From Thermoprotei archaeon (GTDB taxonomy: Archaea; Thermoproteota; Thermoprotei_A; Sulfolobales; NBVN01), in the NCBI GenBank assembly GCA_003661745.1, contig QMWS01000001.1, positions 1 to 45,252 on the forward strand: a stretch of 45,252 nt of DNA. Direction: 5' to 3'. Under the pieces are notes generated by a model. It worked only from the letters and a program-made list of their open reading frames with translations, was not told the origin of the DNA and ran no database searches. Shown here piece by piece: positions 3,494 to 45,252 of this stretch. Within the stretch, counting starts at the first letter, position 1, and every line of letters starts with the position of its first letter. The position numbers were made by a program, and so were the translations under genes.

Positions 3494-4024
3494 TTATTCA
3501 ACCTCAAATGCTACATAATCTTCGAAACCAGAACATTCCTCAATGTCATAAACATCCGCACTACCAATGACAACCTGCCCGTTAACAGCCAAAAGCACAG
3601 GCACAGTTTCAGAGAAACCTCTAACCTTTACATCTGAATAAAGATTTAACGGAAATCTCCTATAACAAGTTACCTTACCGCAACTTGCAACACAGACATA
3701 ATCTGCAATAGAAAACATCTCAGCATCTTCGATAGACGGCATACTACTGCAACTACGACAACCATGAATATGAACAGCAGCAACAGCATTTCCACACCTC
3801 CTAATCGTATCCTCAGTAATCACAGAAACAGGACCAACAGACAATGCAGAACCTTCTTCAAGAACAAAATACCTTCCATCCCGTTCACATACCAAAGCAG
3901 GATGTTCATCTAATGGAATATCTGAATATGTATCCTCCTTATATTTCTCCAAATAGCTCTTAATAGCACTTCTGACATCATTATAATACTCCATGCTCGT
4001 GGTCTCTTTCAACTGCCCGTCCAA
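3494..4024 (-). CDS. JAB/MPN-like metalloprotease candidate
   Basis: Identical mirror copy of 41229..41759. Confidence 0.8.
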   Translation of the reverse strand: MDGQLKETTSMEYYNDVRSAIKSYLEKYKEDTYSDIPLDEHPALVCERDGRYFVLEEGSALSVGPVSVITEDTIRRCGNAVAAVHIHGCRSCSSMPSIEDAEMFSIADYVCVASCGKVTCYRRFPLNLYSDVKVRGFSETVPVLLAVNGQVVIGSADVYDIEECSGFEDYVAFEVE

Positions 4025-4298
4025 TAACTGCCTTCTCTAACACCTTAACATTTTCACGCAAACTATCATAATCAACAGTATCCATCATAACAACAGATTC
4101 CAACCATGAAACAGCAGCACAGAAAGAAAAAGCATCCTCGACAAGGTCAGACATTGAATCTTTCTCTATATCCCTGAGCATACTCTCATAAGTACTGAAT
4201 ATCCTATCACAAGCACCTTTCATATTGTACTTATTACACAATGCCTGTATAACACCCTTCGCTACAGCAACTCTTAAATCTCTATCATCAAGGGACAT
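3981..4298 (-). CDS. Cys-motif helical paralog family member (105 aa)
   Basis: Identical mirror copy of 40955..41272. Confidence 0.75.
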   Translation of the reverse strand: MSLDDRDLRVAVAKGVIQALCNKYNMKGACDRIFSTYESMLRDIEKDSMSDLVEDAFSFCAAVSWLESVVMMDTVDYDSLRENVKVLEKAVIGRAVERDHEHGVL

Positions 4299-4620
4299 AT
4301 TGAGACCTAAAATTGGTTAAATCTATCACATTTGGTATCTGAGCAAATCCTCTTCCTTTCAAGTATTCTGCAAGTTTAATTGTAGTTGCATTTACATCCA
4401 TCTTCTCAGAGCGTTCCTTTATATCATACGGAGGATAATCGAAGTGCGATATAGCAGCACTTGCCTTAGGTCCAATTATGGATATAAATGTCAAATCTTC
4501 AACATCAGTCCAACCAACTCTCTCCAATAGTGGTTCATCATCTTTGTCAAACTTACAAACCAACGCAAGATACTCAGTTGCCTTGTCATATACCCTTGCA
4601 AGTTTACACTTCATCATCAA
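4288..4620 (-). CDS. hypothetical protein (110 aa)
   Basis: Identical mirror copy of 40633..40965. Confidence 0.75.
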   Translation of the reverse strand: MMMKCKLARVYDKATEYLALVCKFDKDDEPLLERVGWTDVEDLTFISIIGPKASAAISHFDYPPYDIKERSEKMDVNATTIKLAEYLKGRGFAQIPNVIDLTNFRSQYVP

Positions 4621-5083
4621 TCCCCTCCTTCAAATATTTTTCAAGTCCATATTCCTTTAAATGTTTTTCCCCAAACCACATCCACTCATCCCATTTTTTC
4701 TTAAACTCATATAACCTCATAAATCCTTTAACATGCCTAAATACACCAGTAATCAAAGGATTAGCTTCATTATAATACCCCAAAGAAATATCCTTCAAAA
4801 TATCCCTGAGAAAATTCCCATAATCAATATAACGATAACTGTCTGTCATCATCATCTTCCATACATCTCCACTTTCCAAAGAACCAACAAATCCCCACAC
4901 AGCATCCTTATACTTGTTAAACAACTCATATACCTCTGTACAAGCAGATTTACAAAATTCAGAATCATGATACCTAGCACAAATAGAATCACAAGAAGAG
5001 ATTATATCCTCTAACTCATTCATCTCTTTCTCAAGTACATCCCCCAGATACCGGATCCTCTTTATTCCAATAGCTAATACCAC
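4604..5083 (-). CDS. Cys-motif helical paralog family member (159 aa)
   Basis: Identical mirror copy of 40170..40649. Confidence 0.8.
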   Translation of the reverse strand: MVLAIGIKRIRYLGDVLEKEMNELEDIISSCDSICARYHDSEFCKSACTEVYELFNKYKDAVWGFVGSLESGDVWKMMMTDSYRYIDYGNFLRDILKDISLGYYNEANPLITGVFRHVKGFMRLYEFKKKWDEWMWFGEKHLKEYGLEKYLKEGIDDEV

Positions 5084-5415
5084 TATCTCAACTTCCTAGT
5101 AATTTCCCAATTATCCTCTAAATACTCATCAATCAAATAATAAATCTTAGTATCAATATCAAGCAAAGTTCTTGCATCATCATCAGAAACATTCCTCCTA
5201 ATAAATGACACATCATGACCCGCCAAAGAAGCAGATATCAAAGCTTTTGTAACATTTCCACTAGATATAGCTTCAACAAGCTCATCAACACTATTCATAT
5301 ACTCCTTACAAGCATTCTGAACAACTCTACCATACTTACTACACATCTTATTCAAACGCTCTCTAATCTTGCTCAGTTCGTAATTCAGCTCTTCCAAATC
5401 CATCCTTTCCACCAC
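5083..5415 (-). CDS. Cys-motif helical paralog family member (110 aa)
   Basis: Identical mirror copy of 39838..40170. Confidence 0.8.
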   Translation of the reverse strand: MVERMDLEELNYELSKIRERLNKMCSKYGRVVQNACKEYMNSVDELVEAISSGNVTKALISASLAGHDVSFIRRNVSDDDARTLLDIDTKIYYLIDEYLEDNWEITRKLR

Positions 5416-5749
5416 AGATACTCTTTATATAATCCTCAACAACCTCTGCATAACTCTTGTAAATATCCATCAAAGAACTAACAAACTCAGTAAGCTTACT
5501 ACATTCGAATGTAACATTCCTCAAAGAACCAATCAAACAACCAATGACATCTTCCTCTCCAAGACATTTCATAGTGTTACCAATGTAACGAGAAACATCC
5601 TTGCAAGAATACCATTGCCAACTACTCTGACTAAAGTAAGTGTTACAGGCATTATCAAATTCAACAGATAAATCCCATATCTTCGAGACAAATTCCTCTG
5701 GTGTCATCTCCATTCTACTCGCCCTCCTCAAATTCTCCTTCCTCTTCAA
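5363..5749 (-). CDS. Cys-motif helical paralog family member (128 aa)
   Basis: Identical mirror copy of 39504..39890. Confidence 0.8.
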   Translation of the reverse strand: MKRKENLRRASRMEMTPEEFVSKIWDLSVEFDNACNTYFSQSSWQWYSCKDVSRYIGNTMKCLGEEDVIGCLIGSLRNVTFECSKLTEFVSSLMDIYKSYAEVVEDYIKSICGGKDGFGRAELRTEQD

Positions 5750-6206
5750 CCGTTCTCCTCAACCAATTTGCATACTCACTAAAACATTCAACAGAACAGC
5801 ACTTCCTAAATACACGCTCAACAAGTACCTCATACTTCGAAGCACAACTCACAAGGTCTAAATAAGCTTCCACAAGCTCTTCCGTGGGTTTAACACTTAA
5901 TATTCCAAATAACAAAACATTCAAAGAATCAATAGCATCTATCATAGACCTAACTACATCCCCTCTTACTTCACTAAAAAACTCCTTAATTTCTCTGAAA
6001 GGTTCTAAAACCCATTCACAATCCACATTTGGATTGTACCATTTGTAAACCCTACAAGTCCTCCATACACAACGATATATATCATCAATCTCCTTATACA
6101 ACTGTTCTATCTCATCCAAACATCTTTCACTACAAGAATTACTCCTCACTACCCCACCTCTTCCTAGCACTAACATAAGCATCAAAGAATGTATCACAGC
6201 AGACAT
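5715..6206 (-). CDS. Cys-motif helical paralog family member (163 aa)
   Basis: Identical mirror copy of 39047..39538. Confidence 0.8.
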   Translation of the reverse strand: MSAVIHSLMLMLVLGRGGVVRSNSCSERCLDEIEQLYKEIDDIYRCVWRTCRVYKWYNPNVDCEWVLEPFREIKEFFSEVRGDVVRSMIDAIDSLNVLLFGILSVKPTEELVEAYLDLVSCASKYEVLVERVFRKCCSVECFSEYANWLRRTVEEEGEFEEGE

Positions 6207-6552
6207 CCATCAACTGTGCAAACGACTTCTTAAGTTCAAATTTAACTTTATGCAATTCATTCCAAATTTCCTTAAACTCTTCATCCCTCAAATAAATCCA
6301 AATAAAACCCTCAATACTCTCAGCAGAACTCACCACCTCATAACCTACAGAATAAGCATCACCCCTACCAACATCCTTAGCAACTGACTTCAAACTCCTA
6401 AACCAATATTCACAATCAGCTTCCCACTCTACAAACTCTTCATACCTTTTACAAAGATTAATAGCTCTATCATATAACTCAGAAACTTTCTCACGAAACT
6501 TATGTATCTCCTTCAAACATTTGTCATATTCTTCATCACTAATTACTACCAT
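6139..6552 (-). CDS. Cys-motif helical paralog family member (137 aa)
   Basis: Identical mirror copy of 38701..39114. Confidence 0.8.
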   Translation of the reverse strand: MVVISDEEYDKCLKEIHKFREKVSELYDRAINLCKRYEEFVEWEADCEYWFRSLKSVAKDVGRGDAYSVGYEVVSSAESIEGFIWIYLRDEEFKEIWNELHKVKFELKKSFAQLMDVCCDTFFDAYVSARKRWGSEE

Positions 6553-6932
6553 TAGAACTCACTCCACTCTTTCCCCATCTCCTCTCTCCATAGCTTTGAA
6601 TAAGGTTCTATACACCTATCTACCGTATATTCAAGATAAGAAGACAACGCCTTTGCATATTCCACCAATCCTAACGACGATAACCCAACAATAGCATCAA
6701 TCACATACCTTGCAAAATCTGTTTCACCATCCCACAACACATTCATAGCAGTATGTATATTATCCAAGGATTCCTTACACAATATACTCTCTCTTGAACC
6801 CGGTTCATACCTATTACAAACACCATCTTCCTTTAACTCACGAAGTAAATTCTTAAGCTCATACGACAACCCCTTCATAGCAGAAATACAAGAATCCACA
6901 TCAGAACGCCTAAAACAAATTTCCTCTACCAT
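6552..6932 (-). CDS. Cys-motif helical paralog family member (126 aa)
   Basis: Identical mirror copy of 38321..38701. Confidence 0.8.
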   Translation of the reverse strand: MVEEICFRRSDVDSCISAMKGLSYELKNLLRELKEDGVCNRYEPGSRESILCKESLDNIHTAMNVLWDGETDFARYVIDAIVGLSSLGLVEYAKALSSYLEYTVDRCIEPYSKLWREEMGKEWSEF

Positions 6933-6943
6933 TCTCTTACCTC

Positions 6944-7336
6944 CTACAATCTACTCTCTTCCTTCAAAGACTTCAGACATTCCTCAACATTATGCCTACA
7001 ACAGTCCCAGTACACAGACTTGAATGCAGATTCAAGACCTACTCGCATACCTATAAACCCATCATCATTCAACAACTCCGACAACGACCTAAAATAACCA
7101 CACACACCAACAAATTCCTCAAAAATAAATCCACTACCTCTTCCCATCTTATTCATCATATCATCAATATCCCCCAAAGCATGTTTACAATAAAGCGTTA
7201 TTGGTCCTTCAACACTTTTACACTTTTCTGCAACCTTAGCCCGTATATCTTTCAATACATTAAACAACCTTTCAAGAGCATTCTCACATTCCTTCTTTCT
7301 CCAATCTTCCATAATATCACCCCTCGATATATGCAA
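6944..7336 (-). CDS. Cys-motif helical paralog family member (130 aa)
   Basis: Identical mirror copy of 37917..38309. Confidence 0.8.
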   Translation of the reverse strand: MHISRGDIMEDWRKKECENALERLFNVLKDIRAKVAEKCKSVEGPITLYCKHALGDIDDMMNKMGRGSGFIFEEFVGVCGYFRSLSELLNDDGFIGMRVGLESAFKSVYWDCCRHNVEECLKSLKEESRL

Positions 7337-22608: not shown

Positions 22609-22644
22609 GCTCACATATGCTCGGATATCCGAGCATATGTGAGC
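22609..22644. other. symmetry axis of the palindrome (candidate hairpin-telomere apex or dimer junction)
   Basis: GCTCACATATGCTCGGAT|ATCCGAGCATATGTGAGC. The axis lies between 22626 and 22627 with no unpaired spacer. CATATG sites flank it at 22614-22619 and 22634-22639. Confidence 0.9.
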
Positions 22645-22667
22645 TTGAGCTACCATCTTAAAGGAAA

Positions 22668-22684
22668 TTGCCCCTTCGGGGCAA
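22668..22684. repeat. GC-clamped local hairpin TTGCCCC-TTCG-GGGGCAA
   Basis: Perfect 7-bp stem with a TTCG tetraloop, 42 nt from the axis. Confidence 0.8.
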
Positions 22685-23303
22685 GGGGAAAACTCTGAGT
22701 AAAGCGTAGGATTGAGATTGAGCCGAAATCTCAAAGGAGATTTTTTTCTTACCAAAGGTAATTGGACAAACATGGGTATTGATTTATATAGTTCGAAATC
22801 CTAACCACGACGATAGTTAAAAATTGTCCAAATACCCGATTTTATGTGAATGTTTTCGAAAATCGGTTCGATGGTTCGTTGTTTCAATGTGTCAATGATT
22901 CAGTGTTTTTTATTTCGTGCATTCTGGGTTCTGCTTTTGATTTTTTGAAAAATCTCGGATTAGATTTGAGAAAAAATTGCGATTTTTGGCAATTCAATGT
23001 GGGGTAATTCTTTTTGTTTTCGGAAAAATATGGGCTGGTTGCCTTTCTTTTTTTGATTTGGGTTTGCATTTTTTGTATTGCACTTTTTGTCGATGGTAAC
23101 ACTTTTGGGCAAATTCGTGCTATCTACATTTTTAGGGATTAGTGTTCAATTTTGTGGAATAATGGACAGTTAATTTATATCATTTTTGATATAAATTGAC
23201 GCTTGATTGGACAAAAGTGGGGATTTGTGCATATGCACACGATTCCGCAAATGTGGGGTTCAGAGTTCTAACCAACCATTTATAAGGGGTTTTATTCGAA
23301 AAC

Positions 23304-23311
23304 TTTTTAAA
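23304..23311 (+). promoter_or_regulatory. TATA-box candidate (TTTTTAAA) for the 137-aa gene
   Basis: Purine-rich upstream flank CGAAAAC. Lies 27-42 nt upstream of the candidate starts. A second TTTATAA occurs at 23279-23285. Mirror copy 21942-21949. Confidence 0.45.
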
Positions 23312-23333
23312 GAAATGCTTTCCAAGTGGAAAG

Positions 23334-23790: not shown

Positions 23791-23829
23791 TAAGTGTAAT
23801 CTTTTGATGTGTTGATTTTCTGTTGTTGA

Positions 23830-23888
23830 GTATTACTTGGTAATACTTGGGTATTACTCGTATTACTCTGGTATTACTGAGTAATACT
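23830..23888. promoter_or_regulatory. iteron cluster, candidate replication origin / protein-binding array
   Basis: GTATTACT at 23830, 23851, 23860 and 23871, and the inverted form GTAATACT at 23840 and 23881. Start-to-start spacing is 10, 11, 9, 11 and 10 bp, about one helical turn. Confidence 0.55.
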
Positions 23889-23949
23889 TATGTATGTTTT
23901 CCAAATTTCAATGTAGTTAAATTATATATATTTTGCAAAAGTATTAAAT

Positions 23950-24595: not shown

Positions 24596-26380
24596 TTGAC
24601 CCGTAGATATACTCGGAGTTATATTGAAAAACAGATTGTTGCGTTTATTTCTCAGGGTTTGGATGCTTTAAAGATATCAAGGTTGTTGGGGTGTGATGTT
24701 AAAGATGTTGAAGAGGTGAAATTTAAAATGCAGGAAGCTGTTGGAAGGTGTAAGGTAGAAGGAGTTGTTTGTGGGTGTTTTTTTAAACCTGTGCCGAGAT
24801 GGTTGGTGTATGAAAAGAAGGTTAAAAATAAAAAGAAGAAGGTTAAGAAGGAGCTAACTCTTTTGCAGAAGTTGTCTATTATTTCTTATGGGCATATACC
24901 AACGAATCTTTTTTCTAAGAAGATTTTGAGTATGGATAACGATGGTGAAGTTTGGTGGGTTGTGAATCTTAGTAGTGGTGTTTCGTTTGTAAGTAAGAAT
25001 TATGTTCCTGTTGGAAGTTATGTTGTGGTTGATGTTCAGAATTTTAATATTCCTGTTGGTGGTAGGAGTCATAAGATTGTGAGATGTAATTATGCAAAAG
25101 GTGTTAAAATAGTTGGAGAGGATGTTAAAAATATTGATTATGAGGAAGCTGTTAAGTATGTGTCTCCTATTTGTGGAACTCCATTATATACGAAGGAGCT
25201 TTTTGTTTATTCTCTTCTTTCTTATGATGCAAGTGGTCTTAGAAAGCCGGTTCCTATTTTAATTTGTGGTCCTTCTGGAACTGGTAAGACGACATTTTTA
25301 GTAGGAATTCATGAATCAATGGGTTTTCCTTTGTTACATTCTGATGATTTATCGAAGACATTGTTTGGGTATGTTAAGGATGGTGAAGCTGTTACTCCTA
25401 TAACTCATTATTGTGTTTTGGTAGATGAGGTTGACAAGGCAAGTCCTGATATGATTAATCTGATTTTAGAGGTTGCTTCTGGAGATTACATGGAGAGGTT
25501 TAAGTGGGGTAAGCACATACGACCACCATTTAGGGGTTATTTGTTTTTTGGGACATTGATGAGGGATGTGAGTTTTTGGAATGAGGTTAAGAAGAAAGCT
25601 TTTGCTCAGTTATTGAGGAGATGTGTTCTTGTTAATATTCAGCTTGATGCTGATAGATACTTTGAGGAGGTTAGTAGTAAGGGTATTGTTGGAAATCGAG
25701 AGCATTTTTATGCATTACTACGAAGGAGGTCGGTTGATGTTGTGTTTGATAATAAGGTTAGTAATGATTTTATTATGAAGTGGTTTAGGGATGTTAATTT
25801 GGATAAATATTCAGAGTTGGATTATGAGGTTCATTATGATAAGATAATGGTAAATCATGTTAAAAATCTTGCAATTGGTCGTGCCAAAGCTTTTGGGAAG
25901 AAGAAGGTTTCTGTTAGTGATGTTGAATATGTTTGTAAGGTTTTGTATAAACATCTTTATTCTTTAGGAATTGTTGAAATTTCAACTACAACGAGGAGTG
26001 AAATTCAGGAGTATCTGTCGAGCATAAAAGGTAGGACAATAAATCTTGAGACTTGTTGTAGTCGGTTCTGTATGTGTGAGGAAGCTGTTAGGGATGTGAT
26101 GGATGATTTTTCGAGGGGTGGAATAGTTAAGCTGGTTGATAGTGATAAGTGGAAGGTCATTGGTGCTTCTGATAGTGATTTGTATGATGTTATTTTGGAT
26201 AAGAAAGAGGAAGAGGCAATTATTAATGCATTGCAGTTGTCAGAACCGTTGACTATTGATGATATTTGTGTGATGACAGGTATTGATAAGGGTAAGGTTG
26301 AGAAATTTGTGAAAAAGTTGTTTGGTATGGGTAAGCTTAGGAAGCTTGGTGATAAATATACTTGGGTTCCGTATGTCTGA
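24596..26380 (+). CDS. AAA+ ATPase, MCM-like helicase/replication-initiator candidate (N-terminal HTH, C-terminal winged helix)
   Basis: 594 aa. Walker A ICGPSGTGKTT and Walker B CVLVDEVDK. LFFGT is sensor-1-like and LLRRCVL is Arg-finger-like. N-terminal HTH IVAFISQGLDALKISRLLGCDVKDV. C-terminal wHTH-like LTIDDICVMTGIDKGKVEKFVKKL. TTG start. Confidence 0.85.
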   Translation: MTRRYTRSYIEKQIVAFISQGLDALKISRLLGCDVKDVEEVKFKMQEAVGRCKVEGVVCGCFFKPVPRWLVYEKKVKNKKKKVKKELTLLQKLSIISYGHIPTNLFSKKILSMDNDGEVWWVVNLSSGVSFVSKNYVPVGSYVVVDVQNFNIPVGGRSHKIVRCNYAKGVKIVGEDVKNIDYEEAVKYVSPICGTPLYTKELFVYSLLSYDASGLRKPVPILICGPSGTGKTTFLVGIHESMGFPLLHSDDLSKTLFGYVKDGEAVTPITHYCVLVDEVDKASPDMINLILEVASGDYMERFKWGKHIRPPFRGYLFFGTLMRDVSFWNEVKKKAFAQLLRRCVLVNIQLDADRYFEEVSSKGIVGNREHFYALLRRRSVDVVFDNKVSNDFIMKWFRDVNLDKYSELDYEVHYDKIMVNHVKNLAIGRAKAFGKKKVSVSDVEYVCKVLYKHLYSLGIVEISTTTRSEIQEYLSSIKGRTINLETCCSRFCMCEEAVRDVMDDFSRGGIVKLVDSDKWKVIGASDSDLYDVILDKKEEEAIINALQLSEPLTIDDICVMTGIDKGKVEKFVKKLFGMGKLRKLGDKYTWVPYV

Positions 26381-27271: not shown

Positions 27272-28313
27272 GTTAGACCAAGAAATTCATGCTCGGTTAA
27301 CTTATATTCTTGGAAAGCTTCAGAGTTCTGGATATATTGAACGGGATGATGTTGATTTTATAAGGGAAATTGTTGAGAGGCATGAGAAGGATGTTAGGTT
27401 GGAAAATGCTCTTTCTGTTCTGAAATTTGTTGGTGGAGATAGATTTGTTCCAACCGATACGGAATATTTCATTAAAAATTTGGATTCTTATAGGTATTTC
27501 GTTCATAGAAGGATAGAATCCAGAAGAGAGAAACATGGGTATAAGGTTGACATTTCTAAGGATTTTGATGATATGGATTTACTTGCTGTTCTTCCTAAGA
27601 TGTGTGGGGAGTATTGGCATTCTACTCTCAAAGCTTGGAAGGAGGATAATACCTATAGGGTTGAATGTACTTATGGTGAGGATTATTTGAAGTTAAGTGT
27701 TGTTAAGGGGGATGAAGGTGTAGAAGTTTATGTTGAGAGTAATCGTTTGGTGAGGGAAGAGGTTGATGTTGATTTTGATTATATTACTGAAAGTGTTAAG
27801 GATTACTGTCGAGGTTTGGATACTCCTTTGTGTATTGTTGTTAATTCGGAGTGTAGTTTCAATGCTTATAGGAGTCTTGGTGGGTCTCGTATTTATTTTT
27901 ATGATTGTAGGACGAGGGTTCCAGCTGATAAGGTTGGCTTGTTTAGGGATGTAGTAAGGCGGTATGGCGGAGTTGTGAATTGTGGGGGCAGTAGATGTAG
28001 CTTTTCGATAGTTGAGGATGGGTTTGAAAGTATCGTCTGGGATATTTGGTATGAGATTGCAGATGATTATGTTGAAAGGTATTATGAAGATTTGCTTGAT
28101 GATTATGTGGAATGTGCTTGTAATGAGTTGTATATGGAGAATGAAGGAACCAACTTGGATATTGAATGTAGTGGAACATACGCATATCCACATGGTGGTG
28201 GATTTATGTGGTATATGGGGGTAAAGGCAAATGGTATGTATGGTAAAGGTTTGTATGAGGAGTCGAAGATGTATTACGATTTGAGGAGGTTGTTTAGGTA
28301 TGTTGATTGGTGA
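27270..28313 (+). CDS. hypothetical acidic Cys-rich protein (347 aa)
   Basis: Long ORF on the stop-rich (C-poor) strand with an ATG start. No family recognised. Confidence 0.9.
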   Translation: MLDQEIHARLTYILGKLQSSGYIERDDVDFIREIVERHEKDVRLENALSVLKFVGGDRFVPTDTEYFIKNLDSYRYFVHRRIESRREKHGYKVDISKDFDDMDLLAVLPKMCGEYWHSTLKAWKEDNTYRVECTYGEDYLKLSVVKGDEGVEVYVESNRLVREEVDVDFDYITESVKDYCRGLDTPLCIVVNSECSFNAYRSLGGSRIYFYDCRTRVPADKVGLFRDVVRRYGGVVNCGGSRCSFSIVEDGFESIVWDIWYEIADDYVERYYEDLLDDYVECACNELYMENEGTNLDIECSGTYAYPHGGGFMWYMGVKANGMYGKGLYEESKMYYDLRRLFRYVDW

Positions 28314-28605
28314 GCTTGTATATCTTCGGGGTTTGACACCTTCGCAGTTGGGATACCATTTGAGGAATATTCTTTCGAGGATTGGTATAGAGATAGAGGG
28401 AGAGAGCATTACAGCATACTATATGAAGGACGAGGATGCCTACCGTATATCTGTCTGTAAGGGAGTTGTTTATCCAGAGGAGTGCATACCTGTTTTGTAC
28501 ATTAGAAGGGACTTCATAGAGAACATTTGCAATAGATATCCAGAGTTGTCTTTTTCGTGTGAAAGAGCTTTGCAACCATATGAACGGGAAGTTGTTGAGG
28601 TGTAG
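28300..28605 (+). CDS. hypothetical protein (101 aa)
   Basis: ATG start with a GAGGAGGT SD at 28283-28290. Overlaps the previous gene by 14 nt. Confidence 0.8.
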   Translation: MLIGELVYLRGLTPSQLGYHLRNILSRIGIEIEGESITAYYMKDEDAYRISVCKGVVYPEECIPVLYIRRDFIENICNRYPELSFSCERALQPYEREVVEV

Positions 28606-36097: not shown

Positions 36098-36204
36098 TTG
36101 ATATGAGAAAGTTTTATTAATGCAGAATACTTTTATGGGAATCGTGTTGGAGGAATATAAATTGGTGAGTTGTAGGCTGGAACCGTTCTTGATGTTGTGG
36201 AAAG

Positions 36205-36213
36205 TTTTATAAA
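36205..36213 (+). promoter_or_regulatory. TATA-box candidate (TTTTATAAA)
   Basis: GGAAAGTTTTATAAATG lies about 27 nt upstream of ATG 36236. A near-copy GAAAGTTTTATTAATG occurs at 36108-36123. Mirror 9040-9048. Confidence 0.5.
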
Positions 36214-36235
36214 TGTTTGATATTTAGAGTTATAT

Positions 36236-36562
36236 ATGGGTATGAGGATTATAGAGGAGTGGAATTGGTATTTGTATGATTTCTTTTGGTATAGTTATGC
36301 TGGGTTTTTTTATGTAATTGCTGTGGTATCTGAGTCTTTTAGGAATAGTTTTTTCCAAGGTTGTGGTTTGTTGTTCTGTTTGATTTCAGCTATTGTGTTT
36401 TTTATGTCGTCATATTTTATTTTAGGTGAAAGGTTGGAGGTTCCTTTTGTTTTGGTTGGTGCTGTTTTGTGTTGGTCTTTTTATGTATTTTCGCCAGTGG
36501 CAATTGCTATTGATTCTGCTGCTTTGTTATTGCTTGGTTTGACACTGGCTATGACGGATTGA
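36236..36562 (+). CDS. small multi-pass membrane protein (108 aa)
   Basis: Three or four hydrophobic segments. Begins a new transcription unit after a 138-bp gap. Confidence 0.8.
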   Translation: MGMRIIEEWNWYLYDFFWYSYAGFFYVIAVVSESFRNSFFQGCGLLFCLISAIVFFMSSYFILGERLEVPFVLVGAVLCWSFYVFSPVAIAIDSAALLLLGLTLAMTD

Positions 36563-36573
36563 TTTTATAGATA

Positions 36574-37341
36574 ATGTATTGTTTTGCAAACTTTTATATA
36601 TTGTGGCTTCTTTTGATATTGTCAATGGTTAGTAGGTATGATATGGAAGAAATTGCAGACAATTTGGAAAAACACGGACTTGTGTGTGATGTCATTTATC
36701 AAACAGGACACGGTATTTTTGATGTAACTTGTCATAGTGAGGGAAAGGACATTCATTTGAATGTTAGAAGGAGGAAAATCTTCGTTGATTATAAGTTCCG
36801 TGCTTTTATCTCAGGTACTGTTCCCGAAGAATATTTTAAGGATATTGCTGCTGAGAAATGTTTATCTTCTGAAATGAATACTTGGGAATGCTTGGTTGCT
36901 CTTGCTGATTGTAAGAAGTATGGAGAGGAATATTCTTGTGAGGTTGAAGTTCCTGAGAATATACCAGAGGATGCTGTTAAAGGATTTGTAGAGGAGATTG
37001 AATCACTTGGTGGAACAGTTAAGCGGGAGGATAATCGTATTAGGTTTAATGTTCGTTATTACGGTGTTTTGATGAGGAATCTGTTTGATGAGGTTATGAA
37101 GTTTGATTGGGGTAGGGATTCTGTTATGAAATTTTATGAGAAGTATAAGGATGTTTTCGTTGCTGATATTGTTGCTGGTGTTAGTAATTGTTTTGCTAAG
37201 GATGTTAGTGTTGATGCCTTTATTGACCACACTTCTTATAATCATTTTACTGTTAGAACTGATTTGAAGTTTAGTGGTGATGTAGGGACTCTTGGATGTG
37301 TGATTGATTTCCTTGATAAGAAGTATTATCAGGAGATTTAG
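36574..37341 (+). CDS. hypothetical protein (255 aa)
   Basis: ATG 36574 gives a hydrophobic N-terminus. The alternative start ATG 36625 lies 29 nt after TTTTATATA (36592-36600). No family recognised. Confidence 0.85.
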   Translation: MYCFANFYILWLLLILSMVSRYDMEEIADNLEKHGLVCDVIYQTGHGIFDVTCHSEGKDIHLNVRRRKIFVDYKFRAFISGTVPEEYFKDIAAEKCLSSEMNTWECLVALADCKKYGEEYSCEVEVPENIPEDAVKGFVEEIESLGGTVKREDNRIRFNVRYYGVLMRNLFDEVMKFDWGRDSVMKFYEKYKDVFVADIVAGVSNCFAKDVSVDAFIDHTSYNHFTVRTDLKFSGDVGTLGCVIDFLDKKYYQEI

Positions 37342-37646: not shown

Positions 37647-37936
37647 AGATGAGGATGTCAAAGGAATGTGTTAGGGCTTTGTATGATGTTGGTGTTGATT
37701 TGGGTTCCTTGGAAGTTGCTTTGAGGTTTAATCTTCCAATTGAAAACCTTGACATTCTTTTCAGGGAAGCTGCACTTGGTGAATCCTTGCTTAGGTTGTC
37801 AGATGCCTGTAATATTCCAATTGACCCTTCTGCTGTTTATGCAATTCAGGATTACATCCGTGCTGGTGATTATGTTTCTGCAAATTATATTGTAAGGGAT
37901 TTAATGCAGAGAATATTTGCATATATCGAGGGGTGA
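37640..37936 (+). CDS. hypothetical protein (98 aa)
   Basis: Start at GTG 37640 or ATG 37649/37655, next to the previous stop. Confidence 0.75.
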   Translation: MVEMRMSKECVRALYDVGVDLGSLEVALRFNLPIENLDILFREAALGESLLRLSDACNIPIDPSAVYAIQDYIRAGDYVSANYIVRDLMQRIFAYIEG

Positions 37937-38309
37937 TATTATGGAAGATTGGAGAAAGAAGGAATGTGAGAATGCTCTTGAAAGGTTGTTTAATGTATTG
38001 AAAGATATACGGGCTAAGGTTGCAGAAAAGTGTAAAAGTGTTGAAGGACCAATAACGCTTTATTGTAAACATGCTTTGGGGGATATTGATGATATGATGA
38101 ATAAGATGGGAAGAGGTAGTGGATTTATTTTTGAGGAATTTGTTGGTGTGTGTGGTTATTTTAGGTCGTTGTCGGAGTTGTTGAATGATGATGGGTTTAT
38201 AGGTATGCGAGTAGGTCTTGAATCTGCATTCAAGTCTGTGTACTGGGACTGTTGTAGGCATAATGTTGAGGAATGTCTGAAGTCTTTGAAGGAAGAGAGT
38301 AGATTGTAG
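37917..38309 (+). CDS. Cys-motif helical paralog family member (130 aa)
   Basis: ATG 37941 after a GAGGGGTGAT SD is the likelier start. Motif KKECENAL-x-AEKCKSVEGPITLYCKHA. C-terminal CC (YWDCCRHN). Confidence 0.8.
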   Translation: MHISRGDIMEDWRKKECENALERLFNVLKDIRAKVAEKCKSVEGPITLYCKHALGDIDDMMNKMGRGSGFIFEEFVGVCGYFRSLSELLNDDGFIGMRVGLESAFKSVYWDCCRHNVEECLKSLKEESRL

Positions 38310-38320
38310 GAGGTAAGAGA

Positions 38321-38701
38321 ATGGTAGAGGAAATTTGTTTTAGGCGTTCTGATGTGGATTCTTGTATTTCTGCTATGAAGGGGTTGTCGTATGAGCTTAA
38401 GAATTTACTTCGTGAGTTAAAGGAAGATGGTGTTTGTAATAGGTATGAACCGGGTTCAAGAGAGAGTATATTGTGTAAGGAATCCTTGGATAATATACAT
38501 ACTGCTATGAATGTGTTGTGGGATGGTGAAACAGATTTTGCAAGGTATGTGATTGATGCTATTGTTGGGTTATCGTCGTTAGGATTGGTGGAATATGCAA
38601 AGGCGTTGTCTTCTTATCTTGAATATACGGTAGATAGGTGTATAGAACCTTATTCAAAGCTATGGAGAGAGGAGATGGGGAAAGAGTGGAGTGAGTTCTA
38701 A
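38321..38701 (+). CDS. Cys-motif helical paralog family member (126 aa)
   Basis: GGAGGT SD at 38309-38314. Motif DSCISAM-x-GVCNRYEPGSRESILCKES. Confidence 0.8.
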   Translation: MVEEICFRRSDVDSCISAMKGLSYELKNLLRELKEDGVCNRYEPGSRESILCKESLDNIHTAMNVLWDGETDFARYVIDAIVGLSSLGLVEYAKALSSYLEYTVDRCIEPYSKLWREEMGKEWSEF

Positions 38702-39114
38702 TGGTAGTAATTAGTGATGAAGAATATGACAAATGTTTGAAGGAGATACATAAGTTTCGTGAGAAAGTTTCTGAGTTATATGATAGAGCTATTAATCTTT
38801 GTAAAAGGTATGAAGAGTTTGTAGAGTGGGAAGCTGATTGTGAATATTGGTTTAGGAGTTTGAAGTCAGTTGCTAAGGATGTTGGTAGGGGTGATGCTTA
38901 TTCTGTAGGTTATGAGGTGGTGAGTTCTGCTGAGAGTATTGAGGGTTTTATTTGGATTTATTTGAGGGATGAAGAGTTTAAGGAAATTTGGAATGAATTG
39001 CATAAAGTTAAATTTGAACTTAAGAAGTCGTTTGCACAGTTGATGGATGTCTGCTGTGATACATTCTTTGATGCTTATGTTAGTGCTAGGAAGAGGTGGG
39101 GTAGTGAGGAGTAA
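38701..39114 (+). CDS. Cys-motif helical paralog family member (137 aa)
   Basis: TAATG stop/start overlap. Motif DKCLKEI-x-NLCKRYEEFVEWEADCEYW. C-terminal CC (MDVCCDTF). Confidence 0.8.
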   Translation: MVVISDEEYDKCLKEIHKFREKVSELYDRAINLCKRYEEFVEWEADCEYWFRSLKSVAKDVGRGDAYSVGYEVVSSAESIEGFIWIYLRDEEFKEIWNELHKVKFELKKSFAQLMDVCCDTFFDAYVSARKRWGSEE

Positions 39115-39538
39115 TTCTTGTAGTGAAAGATGTTTGGATGAGATAGAACAGTTGTATAAGGAGATTGATGATATATATCGTTGTGTATGGAGGACTTGTA
39201 GGGTTTACAAATGGTACAATCCAAATGTGGATTGTGAATGGGTTTTAGAACCTTTCAGAGAAATTAAGGAGTTTTTTAGTGAAGTAAGAGGGGATGTAGT
39301 TAGGTCTATGATAGATGCTATTGATTCTTTGAATGTTTTGTTATTTGGAATATTAAGTGTTAAACCCACGGAAGAGCTTGTGGAAGCTTATTTAGACCTT
39401 GTGAGTTGTGCTTCGAAGTATGAGGTACTTGTTGAGCGTGTATTTAGGAAGTGCTGTTCTGTTGAATGTTTTAGTGAGTATGCAAATTGGTTGAGGAGAA
39501 CGGTTGAAGAGGAAGGAGAATTTGAGGAGGGCGAGTAG
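39047..39538 (+). CDS. Cys-motif helical paralog family member (163 aa)
   Basis: GTG 39104 after GAGGTGGGG is the likelier start. Motif ERCLDEI-x-RTCRVYKWYNPNVDCEWV. C-terminal CC (FRKCCSVEC). Confidence 0.8.
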   Translation: MSAVIHSLMLMLVLGRGGVVRSNSCSERCLDEIEQLYKEIDDIYRCVWRTCRVYKWYNPNVDCEWVLEPFREIKEFFSEVRGDVVRSMIDAIDSLNVLLFGILSVKPTEELVEAYLDLVSCASKYEVLVERVFRKCCSVECFSEYANWLRRTVEEEGEFEEGE

Positions 39539-39890
39539 AATGGAGATGACACCAGAGGAATTTGTCTCGAAGATATGGGATTTATCTGTTGAATTTGATA
39601 ATGCCTGTAACACTTACTTTAGTCAGAGTAGTTGGCAATGGTATTCTTGCAAGGATGTTTCTCGTTACATTGGTAACACTATGAAATGTCTTGGAGAGGA
39701 AGATGTCATTGGTTGTTTGATTGGTTCTTTGAGGAATGTTACATTCGAATGTAGTAAGCTTACTGAGTTTGTTAGTTCTTTGATGGATATTTACAAGAGT
39801 TATGCAGAGGTTGTTGAGGATTATATAAAGAGTATCTGTGGTGGAAAGGATGGATTTGGAAGAGCTGAATTACGAACTGAGCAAGATTAG
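39504..39890 (+). CDS. Cys-motif helical paralog family member (128 aa)
   Basis: ATG 39540, just after the previous stop, is the likelier start. Motif NACNTYFSQSSWQWYSCKDV. Confidence 0.8.
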   Translation: MKRKENLRRASRMEMTPEEFVSKIWDLSVEFDNACNTYFSQSSWQWYSCKDVSRYIGNTMKCLGEEDVIGCLIGSLRNVTFECSKLTEFVSSLMDIYKSYAEVVEDYIKSICGGKDGFGRAELRTEQD

Positions 39891-40170
39891 AGAGCGTTTG
39901 AATAAGATGTGTAGTAAGTATGGTAGAGTTGTTCAGAATGCTTGTAAGGAGTATATGAATAGTGTTGATGAGCTTGTTGAAGCTATATCTAGTGGAAATG
40001 TTACAAAAGCTTTGATATCTGCTTCTTTGGCGGGTCATGATGTGTCATTTATTAGGAGGAATGTTTCTGATGATGATGCAAGAACTTTGCTTGATATTGA
40101 TACTAAGATTTATTATTTGATTGATGAGTATTTAGAGGATAATTGGGAAATTACTAGGAAGTTGAGATAG
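39838..40170 (+). CDS. Cys-motif helical paralog family member (110 aa)
   Basis: Start at GTG 39838 or ATG 39850. Motif KMCSKYGRVVQNACKEY. Confidence 0.8.
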   Translation: MVERMDLEELNYELSKIRERLNKMCSKYGRVVQNACKEYMNSVDELVEAISSGNVTKALISASLAGHDVSFIRRNVSDDDARTLLDIDTKIYYLIDEYLEDNWEITRKLR

Positions 40171-40649
40171 TGGTATTAGCTATTGGAATAAAGAGGATCC
40201 GGTATCTGGGGGATGTACTTGAGAAAGAGATGAATGAGTTAGAGGATATAATCTCTTCTTGTGATTCTATTTGTGCTAGGTATCATGATTCTGAATTTTG
40301 TAAATCTGCTTGTACAGAGGTATATGAGTTGTTTAACAAGTATAAGGATGCTGTGTGGGGATTTGTTGGTTCTTTGGAAAGTGGAGATGTATGGAAGATG
40401 ATGATGACAGACAGTTATCGTTATATTGATTATGGGAATTTTCTCAGGGATATTTTGAAGGATATTTCTTTGGGGTATTATAATGAAGCTAATCCTTTGA
40501 TTACTGGTGTATTTAGGCATGTTAAAGGATTTATGAGGTTATATGAGTTTAAGAAAAAATGGGATGAGTGGATGTGGTTTGGGGAAAAACATTTAAAGGA
40601 ATATGGACTTGAAAAATATTTGAAGGAGGGGATTGATGATGAAGTGTAA
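40170..40649 (+). CDS. Cys-motif helical paralog family member (159 aa)
   Basis: TAGTG stop/start overlap. Motif SICARYHDSEFCKSACTEVY. Confidence 0.8.
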   Translation: MVLAIGIKRIRYLGDVLEKEMNELEDIISSCDSICARYHDSEFCKSACTEVYELFNKYKDAVWGFVGSLESGDVWKMMMTDSYRYIDYGNFLRDILKDISLGYYNEANPLITGVFRHVKGFMRLYEFKKKWDEWMWFGEKHLKEYGLEKYLKEGIDDEV

Positions 40650-40965
40650 ACTTGCAAGGGTATATGACAAGGCAACTGAGTATCTTGCGTTGGTTTGTAA
40701 GTTTGACAAAGATGATGAACCACTATTGGAGAGAGTTGGTTGGACTGATGTTGAAGATTTGACATTTATATCCATAATTGGACCTAAGGCAAGTGCTGCT
40801 ATATCGCACTTCGATTATCCTCCGTATGATATAAAGGAACGCTCTGAGAAGATGGATGTAAATGCAACTACAATTAAACTTGCAGAATACTTGAAAGGAA
40901 GAGGATTTGCTCAGATACCAAATGTGATAGATTTAACCAATTTTAGGTCTCAATATGTCCCTTGA
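40633..40965 (+). CDS. hypothetical protein (110 aa)
   Basis: ATG 40636 or 40639 after a GGAGGGGAT SD. No clear family motif. Confidence 0.75.
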   Translation: MMMKCKLARVYDKATEYLALVCKFDKDDEPLLERVGWTDVEDLTFISIIGPKASAAISHFDYPPYDIKERSEKMDVNATTIKLAEYLKGRGFAQIPNVIDLTNFRSQYVP

Positions 40966-41272
40966 TGATAGAGATTTAAGAGTTGCTGTAGCGAAGGGTG
41001 TTATACAGGCATTGTGTAATAAGTACAATATGAAAGGTGCTTGTGATAGGATATTCAGTACTTATGAGAGTATGCTCAGGGATATAGAGAAAGATTCAAT
41101 GTCTGACCTTGTCGAGGATGCTTTTTCTTTCTGTGCTGCTGTTTCATGGTTGGAATCTGTTGTTATGATGGATACTGTTGATTATGATAGTTTGCGTGAA
41201 AATGTTAAGGTGTTAGAGAAGGCAGTTATTGGACGGGCAGTTGAAAGAGACCACGAGCATGGAGTATTATAA
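40955..41272 (+). CDS. Cys-motif helical paralog family member (105 aa)
   Basis: ATG start. Motif ALCNKYNMKGACDRIF. Confidence 0.75.
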   Translation: MSLDDRDLRVAVAKGVIQALCNKYNMKGACDRIFSTYESMLRDIEKDSMSDLVEDAFSFCAAVSWLESVVMMDTVDYDSLRENVKVLEKAVIGRAVERDHEHGVL

Positions 41273-41759
41273 TGATGTCAGAAGTGCTATTAAGAGCTAT
41301 TTGGAGAAATATAAGGAGGATACATATTCAGATATTCCATTAGATGAACATCCTGCTTTGGTATGTGAACGGGATGGAAGGTATTTTGTTCTTGAAGAAG
41401 GTTCTGCATTGTCTGTTGGTCCTGTTTCTGTGATTACTGAGGATACGATTAGGAGGTGTGGAAATGCTGTTGCTGCTGTTCATATTCATGGTTGTCGTAG
41501 TTGCAGTAGTATGCCGTCTATCGAAGATGCTGAGATGTTTTCTATTGCAGATTATGTCTGTGTTGCAAGTTGCGGTAAGGTAACTTGTTATAGGAGATTT
41601 CCGTTAAATCTTTATTCAGATGTAAAGGTTAGAGGTTTCTCTGAAACTGTGCCTGTGCTTTTGGCTGTTAACGGGCAGGTTGTCATTGGTAGTGCGGATG
41701 TTTATGACATTGAGGAATGTTCTGGTTTCGAAGATTATGTAGCATTTGAGGTTGAATAA
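41229..41759 (+). CDS. JAB/MPN-like metalloprotease candidate
   Basis: ATG 41259 is the likelier start. JAMM-like H-x-H-x9-S-x2-D motif in AAVHIHGCRSCSSMPSIEDAEMF, with an upstream layout like RadC/JAB domains. The spacer is 2 residues longer than canonical. Confidence 0.8.
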   Translation: MDGQLKETTSMEYYNDVRSAIKSYLEKYKEDTYSDIPLDEHPALVCERDGRYFVLEEGSALSVGPVSVITEDTIRRCGNAVAAVHIHGCRSCSSMPSIEDAEMFSIADYVCVASCGKVTCYRRFPLNLYSDVKVRGFSETVPVLLAVNGQVVIGSADVYDIEECSGFEDYVAFEVE

Positions 41760-44286: not shown

Positions 44287-45252
44287 ATGAGACACATAGG
44301 TATTGCGATTGTTTTGTTATTGATTTCAGTTGCTGTTGCAGATAGCTACTCTGCAACTGTTAGACGGGGAGAGTACATTGTTTTTTCAGATTATGCATTG
44401 AAGCTTGAAGATGTGTTTACTTACAATGGTACGAAGTTTGCATACTTTACAATGAAACGCTCTTGTAGCGATTACTGGTCAGGAACTGTTGCGGAAAATA
44501 CATCTCGTTCAGTAAATTCTGACATCTCCTTGTATGTTGGGCAGGTTCTACTTGCGGATGTTGGTGCTGCTGTTGTTACTGTTACTACGACATTTTCAAC
44601 CTCGTTTGGTTTGACATCTACCAATCCTTGTGAAACTACTACTACAACTACTCAGGAGAGTTCAAGTTCTGAAACTGAGCAGGTGTCCTATGCTTTGTAC
44701 ATTGGTGGTGTAGCTGTTACCTCTGGTGTATATGAATGTGAGCAAGCTGAATTGGTTGTAAATGTTTCAACATACAAAGTTGAGATAGAACCACAGGAAT
44801 GTGCGTTGGTTCTTGGTTCTACAATAGAGGGTTCTAAGTTGGACATTGTTCTTTCACCAAAGTGTATGTTGAACATATCCGTTGAACCTGTTTACATAAC
44901 TTTGCCTGTTGCTAAGTGGACTTTAAAACCACCTCATAGTGTCTCGCAGAGTTATGATGAGAACATTACAAGGTTGCAGAACCAAGTTAGGGATTTGAAT
45001 AGTAAGATAGAGAATCTGACAACTATGTTGGATAGGTTATCTGGGCAGATTTCGGAGTTGAACAAAAAAGTTACAGAGGTTCAGAAAACTTCTACTGGGA
45101 AGAATGTAAGTGAGGAAGAAGAGAAGCAGGAGGAGCATGTTATTTCTTACTCTGTTGCTTGTGCCAATAAGACGGGCAATGTCTGGAATTATGATTTGAG
45201 TTCCTGTGGTTCTTCAATGGCGGTTACTATATTTGACAATAATCAACCTGCT
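44287..45252 (+). CDS. surface/secreted glycoprotein candidate (partial; 322 codons, no stop before window edge)
   Basis: Translated by hand, and absent from the ORF track because it has no stop codon. Signal-peptide-like MRHIGIAIVLLLISVAVA, a Thr/Ser-rich linker (TTTFSTSFGLTSTNPCETTTTTTQESSSSE), the coiled-coil segment ITRLQNQVRDLNSKIENLTTMLDRLSGQISELNKKV, and 8 N-x-S/T sequons. Confidence 0.8.
   Translation, partial: MRHIGIAIVLLLISVAVADSYSATVRRGEYIVFSDYALKLEDVFTYNGTKFAYFTMKRSCSDYWSGTVAENTSRSVNSDISLYVGQVLLADVGAAVVTVTTTFSTSFGLTSTNPCETTTTTTQESSSSETEQVSYALYIGGVAVTSGVYECEQAELVVNVSTYKVEIEPQECALVLGSTIEGSKLDIVLSPKCMLNISVEPVYITLPVAKWTLKPPHSVSQSYDENITRLQNQVRDLNSKIENLTTMLDRLSGQISELNKKVTEVQKTSTGKNVSEEEEKQEEHVISYSVACANKTGNVWNYDLSSCGSSMAVTIFDNNQPA

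Follow-up and report, generated by a model that had tools for sequence, protein, structure and literature searches.

Eight very diverged tandem paralogs, predicted four-helix bundles with a conserved cysteine pair, in an archaeal replicon that assembles as a palindrome

Introduction

Eight small genes follow one another on one strand of an archaeal contig, and the few residues that their products keep in common are a pair of cysteines, a tyrosine, and some turn residues. Are they copies of a single gene, and what might such a set of proteins do? The DNA examined, referred to below as the window, comprises positions 1 to 45,252 of contig QMWS01000001.1 (45,252 nucleotides) and appears to be part of an uncharacterised linear archaeal mobile element. 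Nine co-oriented open reading frames (ORFs) are found on the + strand within 37917–41272. Eight of them form a family, here named A1 to A8, and the ninth is an interposed gene, X. A first-pass annotation of the sequence had listed the eight ORFs as divergent paralogs, and all of them were recovered in place together with every peptide that it had quoted. The family is new but of a familiar kind, a small helical protein of an archaeal mobile element whose gene has been multiplied in tandem within one lineage.

Results

Relationship between the array proteins

Three features recur in the array proteins: a helix at the N-terminus, the motif C-x2-Y-x(4-11)-C, and a turn of the form G-[DE]-V. The pattern C..Y.{4,12}C occurs in seven of the eight, always within residues 21–51, as opposed to 3 of 47 other genes of the element. 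The exception is A1, where the tyrosine of the motif is replaced by a valine. Shuffling of the array proteins yielded 0.43 pattern hits on average, with a maximum of 4 in 2000 trials. Alignment with MAFFT brought out additional features: a first helix of the L-x2-E-L-x-D-I type, [KE] after the second cysteine, and the G-[DE]-V turn about 25 residues past that cysteine, followed by x-I-D-A. The invariant positions are the cysteine pair, the tyrosine, and the turn residues only.

The pairwise identity among the array proteins is 15–25%, and most pairs are insignificant when compared with hhalign. Such values are compatible with a set of non-homologous genes, whose Cys-rich helical products, being encoded on a G+T-rich strand, would have the motif by chance. 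The coding strand consists of 36% T, 26% G, and 10% C, and the motif is also present in two unrelated-looking genes. As strand composition alone favours Cys, Val, Gly, and Tyr codons, controls of matched composition were used.

Profiles built from seven members were searched against the 293 six-frame ORFs of the element. The left-out member was the top match outside the training set for A2 to A7 (E = 1.5e-6 to 2.6e-3) and a marginal one for A1 (0.025) and A8 (0.065). The left-out member outscored 1000 of 1000 of its own shuffles in every case but that of A8 (991 of 1000). All-against-all comparison of single sequences with hhalign, the check that had been advised for this family, showed an enrichment of significant pairs: P fell below 0.01 in 10 of the 45 pairs formed within the family, compared with 2 of 120 pairs of a family member and a control and 2 of 66 pairs of two controls. 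Finally, profiles built separately for two sub-families, A1–A4 with their relatives and A5–A8 with theirs, aligned in register over 44 columns (hhalign, P = 4e-4), a match that spans the first helix and the cysteine motif. From the leave-one-out profiles, the enrichment of hhalign pairs, and the in-register match of the sub-families, it is concluded that the eight genes are, on the evidence of their sequences, real and very diverged paralogs, as the first-pass annotation had claimed. A coincidental motif is largely refuted and hardly credible, since its position and frequency go far beyond those found in shuffles and in genes of the element with the same composition, every member stands above its own shuffles against the profile of the others, the sub-family profiles match in register, and the members share predicted fold, size, charge, and adjacency.

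No further member was found by a profile scan of the six-frame ORFs over 38 kb. These 38 kb, counted from the centre of the palindrome described below, are the readable part of the replicon, about half of it. The flanking genes, U1 and U2 on the upstream side and D1 and D2 on the downstream side, are not members according to both hhalign and the family profile.

Two extra copies of the motif were noticed away from the array, each preceded by a helix and followed by [E]. CNRYPELSFSC-E (28528–28560) is at the C-terminus of a 101-residue protein (28300–28605), with a family-profile E-value of about 0.01. CKKYGEEYSC-E (36910–36939) lies within a 255-residue protein (36574–37341) and is without profile support. 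The two copies may represent a shared stapled-hairpin module, or chance.

Individual genes of the array

Likely starts, which give proteins shorter than the longest ORFs, were chosen according to GGAGG/GGTG-like sites upstream and to gene calls on other assemblies. Such sites are present upstream of most array starts. All the genes below are on the + strand.

A1 (37941–38309; longest ORF from 37917) encodes 122 amino acids (aa) with an isoelectric point (pI) of 5.5. It has the most deviant motif of the array, CKSVEGPITLYC (38031–38066), together with a helix-1 cysteine (ECENAL) and a C-terminal CC doublet. None of 1000 shuffles of A1 reached its leave-one-out score (E = 0.025), and hhalign relates it to P0010, an A2-like protein from another sample (P = 2.3e-4), and to A6 (P = 3e-3). 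A2 (38321–38701, 126 aa, pI 4.6) contains the motif CNRYEPGSRESILC (38435–38476), a helix-1 cysteine (SCISAM), and one C-terminal cysteine; its leave-one-out E-value is 3.7e-4. A3 (38701–39114, 137 aa, pI 4.9), with the motif CKRYEEFVEWEADC (38800–38841), has a helix-1 cysteine (KCLKEI) and a C-terminal CC, and was retrieved with E = 4.2e-4. A4 (39104–39538) is 144 aa long when started at the GTG at 39104, with a pI of 4.5; the longest ORF, from 39047, gives 163 aa, and 160 aa is also proposed by gene callers. Its motif is CRVYKWYNPNVDC (39197–39235), its helix-1 cysteine is in RCLDEI, and it ends with KCCSVEC. The leave-one-out E-value of A4 is 1.5e-6, and A3 and A4 match each other with P = 6e-4 (hhalign). 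The upstream cysteine reported by the first-pass annotation is present in these members, but its distance before the motif is 22–24 residues, not 21–23. The C-terminal CC doublets are as had been described.

A5 (39540–39890, 116 aa, pI 4.4; longest ORF from 39504) carries CNTYFSQSSWQWYSC (39606–39650). It was found with E = 1.1e-4 by the profile of the other members and has zero significant pairs in single-sequence hhalign comparisons. A6 (39850–40170, 106 aa, pI 4.9; longest ORF from 39838) has two cysteines only, those of its motif CSKYGRVVQNAC (39910–39945). Its leave-one-out E-value is 4.3e-6, and its hhalign matches are to P0010 (P = 1.1e-4), A7 (4.4e-3), and A8 (6.9e-3). A7 (40170–40649, 159 aa, pI 5.1; leave-one-out E = 2.6e-3) contains a twin motif, C31-x3-C35-x8-C44-x3-C48 (SSCDSICARYHDSEFCKSAC, around 40260–40313). 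X (40639–40965, 108 aa) follows, between A7 and A8; it is an unrelated, conserved gene and not a member, with E ≥ 14 against the family profile, and searches of PDB and PADLOC with X gave zero matches. A8 (40955–41272, 105 aa, pI 4.7), with the motif CNKYNMKGAC (41015–41044), has the shortest loop of the array. By sequence it is the weakest member, with a leave-one-out E-value of 0.065 and 9 of 1000 of its own shuffles reaching its score.

Spacing between the genes of the array is −41 to +11 nt, that is, stops and starts overlap or are at most 11 nt apart, which supports the earlier claim of a single, tightly packed gene run. No gap longer than 35 nt exists between 36236 and 41759, and the last sizeable intergenic space 5' of the array is 36098–36235. 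The sequence AAAG-TTTTATAAA (36201–36213, + strand) resembles an archaeal B-recognition element and TATA box. The ATG at 36236 follows it after about 27 nt, and transcription of the long gene run to which the array belongs may be driven from here. All eight array proteins are acidic, with pI values of 4.4–5.5 and net charges of −3 to −13.5, whereas 33% of the 63 other genes encode acidic proteins.

Predicted fold and arrangement of the cysteines

Structures were predicted with AlphaFold2 for A3, the best-linked member, from a 10-sequence family alignment, and for A8, the weakest. Both models are four-helix bundles, the shared helical bundle that had been anticipated if the proteins were related. 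The A3 model has a predicted local distance difference test score (pLDDT) of 78.7 and a predicted template modelling score (pTM) of 0.75, with helices at residues 6–36, 41–63, 66–87, and 91–133. The values for A8 are 91 and 0.81, with helices at residues 3–23, 27–45, 49–70, and 74–101. In both models, the first invariant cysteine is 2–3 residues before the end of helix 1 and the second is 3–6 residues into helix 2. In A8, C21 and C30 flank the loop between these helices, 2–3 residues from each of its ends; in A3, C34 is at the end of helix 1 and C47 about six residues into helix 2. A shared predicted fold, a four-helix bundle with the cysteine pair at a helix–helix turn, is supported by the two models. 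We infer that the invariant pair most likely forms a disulfide, which would staple the hairpin of helices 1 and 2.

In A7 and in its ortholog P0004, the pattern is C-x3-C-x8-C-x3-C. An arrangement C-x3-C...C-x3-C is that of two nested helix–helix disulfides, as in twin Cx3C proteins. An extra cysteine near the start of helix 1 and a cysteine or CC in helix 4 co-occur only in A1, A2, P0010, A3, and A4. These extra cysteines fall in single alignment columns, and from the lengths of the helices they would be at about the same height in the bundle. The cysteine content is 3.9% in the array versus 2.0% elsewhere. The amino-acid make-up of the element looks like that of a hyperthermophile, the sum of IVYWREL residues being 47% in its proteins, a figure that is confounded by the strand bias. 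The probable source of the element, hydrothermal sediment, fits such a make-up as well. Disulfides that stabilise proteins inside the cell are well documented in hyperthermophilic archaea and their viruses (PMC4187194).

The same cysteines could be taken as ligands or redox centres. The proteins would then bind metal or carry out thiol redox chemistry, either as dimers with a four-Cys site at the tip of the hairpin or as metal stores similar to the copper-storage proteins Csp. The invariant cysteine pair stands beside an invariant tyrosine, cysteine is enriched in the array, and copper-storage four-helix bundles are among the weak fold matches. However, these fold matches are insignificant (E around 0.5; 0.45–0.8 for Csp with Foldseek), and Csp line their whole core with many cysteines, whereas the array proteins have 2–9 each, of which only two are conserved. 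Moreover, the A7 cysteines, at positions i and i+4 within helices, have the geometry of helix–helix disulfides rather than that of a zinc knuckle, and the proteins have no CxxC redox motif. Because only two cysteines are conserved, a metal site is held to be a minor alternative, and such functions are very improbable. The disulfide staple is the preferred role of the pair.

Comparison with known folds

When the two models were compared with PDB using Foldseek, both retrieved the same generic up-down four-helix bundles (2rld, 1x8z, de novo bundles, Csp), and nothing better than E = 0.059 was found. The best structural neighbours reach template modelling (TM) scores of 0.62–0.65, all with E ≥ 0.06. 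A comparison of the A3 model with BFVD was uninformative, with no match below E = 0.05. The top match of both models is 2rld, a 23S rRNA intervening-sequence protein with the Avd fold (E = 0.059 for A3 and 0.68 for A8; TM 0.42–0.52). For a role like that of Avd, no Pfam match was obtained and there is no reverse transcriptase among the proteins scanned. The pectin methylesterase inhibitor (PMEI) 1x8z superimposes with a TM score of 0.62 (E = 0.28), and the proteins have no PMEI match in Pfam.

Saposin-like proteins are similar to the array proteins in that they are helical, with a C-x(10-13)-C-K hairpin disulfide and cysteines that link the first and last helices. In addition, saposin A is the best natural match of the family profile among PDB sequences, and multi-saposin proteins came up in the exhaustive search described below. 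In contrast, the helices of the array models are much longer (19–43 residues) and there are about 45 extra residues between the cysteines. A SapB domain is about 80 aa long and has four or five short helices, with six cysteines paired in three nested disulfides. Membership of the saposin family was rejected on the PDB E-values (0.13–0.49), the library hits that arise from summed repeats, and the lack of a SapB match in Pfam. The saposin fold was likewise rejected, as no saposin is among the top 50 Foldseek matches of A3 or A8 in PDB.

CHCH and other twin Cx3C–Cx9C hairpins, such as the small Tim proteins, consist of two antiparallel helices tied by disulfides between cysteines spaced one turn apart. 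A7 and P0004 show a cysteine spacing of this kind, exactly C-x3-C...C-x3-C, and the other seven members have a single pair. Also unlike CHCH proteins, the hairpin is predicted to be part of a four-helix bundle, and Pfam gives no CHCH match. The similarity lies in mechanism and not in descent.

Relatives and selection

That the family, which the first-pass annotation did not recognise, has no known relatives is borne out by searches of Pfam, PHROGs, NCBIfam, PADLOC, PDB, BFVD, and phage genomes, together with an exhaustive protein search. Scans of the array proteins and their neighbours against Pfam, PHROGs, NCBIfam, and PADLOC were negative or below threshold. With 12 members and E ≤ 10, Pfam returned no SapB, CHCH, PMEI, 23S intervening-sequence/Avd, or Csp match. 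The family profile had no significant match among PDB sequences, the best natural one being saposin A (E = 0.13–0.49). A word-indexed search with the family alignment returned this lineage only. An exhaustive hmmsearch of 1.84 billion representatives yielded, apart from proteins of this lineage, only three hits (E around 1e-4): two multi-saposin proteins of eukaryotes and a repeat artefact. The scores of these three are sums over 3–9 repeats (3–7 in P0011 and P0012). This library is not a complete census, because A3 itself was not returned from it. Megablast and tblastn, including tblastn with A7, found no match in 50,697 phage and archaeal-virus records. The search with gene X found two clusters only, and queries with the ATPase of the element and X had no match in IMG/VR, JGI metagenomes, or GTDB genomes.

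The relatives present in other samples are few and on tiny contigs. A2 has a 91% identical variant, P0007 (on L007), and a 45% identical relative, the A2-like P0010 (on L006). In L006 (1–511), P0010 comes directly after the ortholog of A4, in the slot that A5 occupies in the window. L005 (3–898) encodes the A7 ortholog P0004, 74% identical, followed by a conserved X, also 74% identical, and A8. In this contig, the slot of A6 is taken by a helical, Cys-containing protein of 134 aa that the family profile does not recognise (E = 3.4).

Selection was estimated by the Nei-Gojobori method. The dN/dS ratio (omega) is 0.29 for A7, 0.12 for X, 0.2 for the N-terminus of A3, and 0.11 for the C-terminus of A4. 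For A2 and the C-terminus of A1 compared with a close variant, it is about 1.2–1.4, based on very few changes. From these estimates and the differences between strains, it follows that the copies are real, selected genes and that some slots of the array turn over between strains.

A replicon that assembles as a palindrome

Over all 45,252 positions the window is identical to its own reverse complement (0 mismatches), a perfect palindrome centred on 22626/22627. The first-pass annotation had noted a mirror copy of the array at 3981–7336 (− strand). The copy is exact, but it is not a second, independent locus, because the whole window is palindromic; it reflects the assembly or the end of a genome. 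The same sequence, with one mismatch, is present in the ENA contigs NODE_253 (ERZ1742239; 77,573 bp) and k141_315791 (148,032 bp) and in Logan contigs. In k141_315791 the centre of the palindrome is at 74,016, exactly half of the length (2 × 74,016). From coordinate arithmetic, NODE_253 ends about 38 nt beyond the centre of the palindrome. A single base (31462) distinguishes the assemblies, which may come from one sample or from sister samples.

These data are most naturally read as a linear duplex whose end is closed covalently by a hairpin, or else as a head-to-head replicative junction. Hairpin ends are known in archaeal rod-shaped viruses (PMC6315595). The unique length of the replicon would be 74–77.5 kb. 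Every finding made in the window has to be read differently once it is recognised as the inner part of a palindromic assembly of 148 kb, from a replicon of at least 74 kb. The share of the array in the unique genome, previously put at 12–15%, is actually about 4.5% of a replicon of at least 74–77.5 kb.

Essentially all genes are directed outward from the centre on the G-rich strand for at least 38 kb, with a GC skew of +0.16 to +0.57, and the array is situated 15.3–18.6 kb from the centre. The strand asymmetry spans 22627–45252 of the window and 1–20909 of L008; the replication mode and deamination of an exposed strand are candidate causes. Next to the centre is a non-coding region of about 700 bp (22627–23330) with small stem-loops, for example GCCCCTTCGGGGC at 22670–22682, and short palindromic tandem repeats occur further in (23826–23889). 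The centre-adjacent region is a possible telomere or origin. Searches for tRNAs and against Rfam were negative, and a scan for tandem repeats found nothing relevant to the array. With its palindromic assembly, hairpin-looking end, extreme strand asymmetry, and almost entirely unannotatable gene content, the replicon is a more unusual object than the array.

Other genes of the element

The genes that can be annotated encode an AAA ATPase, several helix-turn-helix proteins, YdjM-like and Rce1-like membrane proteins, a Na+/Ca2+ antiporter, a Thr-rich membrane-anchored protein, and almost nothing else. The first-pass annotation had treated the element as a virus. This was not borne out: scans of the proteins recognised no capsid, packaging, or other hallmark gene in the readable 38 kb.

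The largest gene near the end (24596–26380) encodes a protein of 594 aa with a Walker-type AAA domain (residues 215–300, approximately) and winged-helix-like regions in its C-terminal part. Searches of IMG/VR and of phage records found no relative of this protein, a candidate for the role of replication initiator. A protein of 456 aa is cut by the end of the window (44287–45252, continued to 15488 of L003). Its N-terminus looks like a signal or an anchor and its C-terminus contains a membrane anchor; a Thr/Ser-rich stretch, a coiled coil, and many N-x-S/T sites are also present. With these features it could be a protein of the element's surface or envelope. Beyond the end of the window and about 27 kb from the centre, a full-length Na+/Ca2+ antiporter is encoded (L003, 19567–20475; TIGR00367, E = 8e-51), whose nearest cellular homologs are only 35–38% identical. 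An Rce1-like CPBP protease gene comes after it (L008, 16504–17250).

The antiporter is recorded at NCBI as RLE49138.1, locus tag DRJ18_00410, in a genome labelled Candidatus Methanomethylicota/Verstraetearchaeota. Binning with a Methanomethylicota genome is weak evidence for the host. The DRJ tag presumably comes from the survey of Guaymas Basin hydrothermal sediment.

D1 (41229/41259–41759) is a Cys-rich protein encoded just 3' of the array. Its stretch HIHGCRSCSSMPSIED (41481–41528) resembles the H-x-H...S-x2-D signature of JAMM proteases, with a longer spacer. The assignment of D1 as a JAMM protease was dropped, as neither Pfam nor PDB supports it.

Part of this gene content could be seen as a regulatory context for the array. 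The half of the readable region in which the array lies is rich in small proteins of the DNA-binding type and includes the AAA ATPase; small four-helix bundles are often adaptors, and each copy is conserved between strains. The array proteins would then serve the element's own programme as regulators or adaptors, for example by partnering its many helix-turn-helix proteins or as timing or partition factors, and would not be effectors directed at the host. On the other hand, they have no DNA-binding motif, their charge is acidic, and eight diverged copies are many for one regulatory circuit. A regulatory function is accordingly judged improbable, and a role in binding or inhibiting other proteins is preferred.

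Discussion

It is proposed that tandem duplication would have enlarged the family inside a long gene run, coded on a single strand, of an uncharacterised linear archaeal mobile element. Each copy is predicted to be a small (105–159 aa), soluble, acidic, up-down four-helix bundle. The invariant cysteines on either side of the turn between helices 1 and 2 would form a disulfide staple of this hairpin, to which A7 would add a second, nested pair, and in A1–A4 the helix-1 cysteine and the helix-4 Cys or CC could tie the ends of the bundle together. In hyperthermophilic archaea and their viruses, intracellular proteins are commonly stabilised by disulfides in this way. Core and turns are conserved, the remainder has diverged to 15–25% identity, and individual copies are still maintained by purifying selection. 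For these reasons, the family may be regarded as one rigid scaffold presenting eight different binding surfaces. The copies could thereby be protein-binding modulators or inhibitors of different targets, in the host (takeover, anti-defence) or in the element itself.

This reading as a whole, a disulfide-stapled four-helix scaffold diversified into protein-binding modulators or inhibitors, is put forward tentatively, as plausible without being probable. A binding, inhibitory, or anti-defence role is suggested by analogy only. A conserved core with conserved turns, acidic and soluble members, eight retained and apparently sub-functionalised copies, and turnover of slots would together match the pattern of viral host-interaction and anti-defence families. 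The proposed inhibitor mode has a parallel in plants, whose pectin methylesterase inhibitors are disulfide-bearing four-helix bundles acting as proteinaceous inhibitors of an enzyme.

The closest parallel among archaeal viruses may be the anti-CRISPR (Acr) families of the AcrID1 type in rudiviruses and lipothrixviruses. There too, several very diverged small paralogs occur in one linear, virus-like archaeal genome, content varies between strains, and homologs are absent outside the lineage. The minimum identity within the AcrID1 family is 7.3% (PMC11065993). However, archaeal anti-CRISPR paralogs are mostly monocistronic, with strong early promoters of their own, and near genome ends (PMC11065993), whereas the array is one packed run 15.3–18.6 kb from the end with gaps of −41 to +11 nt. 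No sequence match to any Acr was found by the PDB search, by tblastn with A7 in the 50,697 records, or by the exhaustive search.

Several findings weigh against the proposed scaffold and its function. The A3 and A8 models rest on shallow alignments of 10–12 sequences, all of them family members. Pairwise similarity is weak, with hhalign probabilities of at most 56% except for A2–P0010, and A8 is borderline. The counts of cysteines are often odd (7, 5, 5, 9), hence not every cysteine can be paired, and a G+T-rich coding strand by itself favours Cys codons. No homolog of known function was found for any member, and the element is at most a putative virus, as no capsid or packaging gene was recognised in the readable 38 kb. 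Finally, a polycistronic array 15–18.6 kb from the end would fit co-produced subunits of one complex equally well.

The last point leads to the reading that is ranked second. The eight proteins could be structural or assembly components of a particle, or of one hetero-oligomeric complex. They might make up a matrix or scaffold, associate with a nucleoprotein, or build filaments, and would then be comparable to the four-helix-bundle capsid proteins that occur in pairs in filamentous archaeal viruses. Capsid proteins of the SIRV2 and AFV1 type (Adnaviria) are four-helix bundles of 130–140 aa, sometimes with two paralogs side by side, and the genomes that encode them are linear and hairpin-ended (PMC4187194, PMC6315595); virions of rod-shaped archaeal viruses are made of such proteins (PMC4187194). 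The predicted fold of the array proteins and the seemingly linear replicon with its hairpin-type end would agree with this, rod-shaped archaeal viruses having such ends (PMC6315595). Tight packing with overlapping stops and starts would favour a fixed stoichiometry, each copy is retained under purifying selection, and membrane and coiled-coil proteins are encoded 3–5 kb downstream of the array.

The array proteins differ from these capsid proteins in that all are acidic, unsuited to coating DNA, and in their number, eight copies instead of one or two. The tight packing is common to the whole element and not specific to the array, and array slots are exchanged between related strains. Neither AFV1 ORF132/140 nor the SIRV2 capsid protein was matched in PDB by the family profile at E ≤ 10. 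Foldseek gave AFV1 ORF140 (3fbz_D) with E = 1.8, a probability of 0.15, and a TM score of 0.30, and this structure is absent from the top 50 matches of A3. A structural function is thus unlikely, if less so than a regulatory one, and the binder or inhibitor reading is ranked first.

A bolder version of the binder reading would make the array the host-takeover or anti-defence toolkit of a new lineage of linear archaeal viruses, hairpin-ended and coded on a single strand, possibly infecting Methanomethylicia, with each paralog inhibiting a different host protein by means of a new disulfide-stapled four-helix scaffold. Drawn by analogy with known viral families, this full version is doubtful.

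The present value of the array is more modest, that of a well-supported new protein family usable as a marker of its lineage. If the proposed function is true, at least eight binders have arisen within one mobile element from a single compact and heat-stable scaffold stapled by disulfides. New inhibitors directed at archaeal defence or core machinery might then be sought in the array. It would also provide an entry to the host-interaction biology of a nearly unannotatable element from a little-studied group of archaea, the Methanomethylicota if the binning is right.

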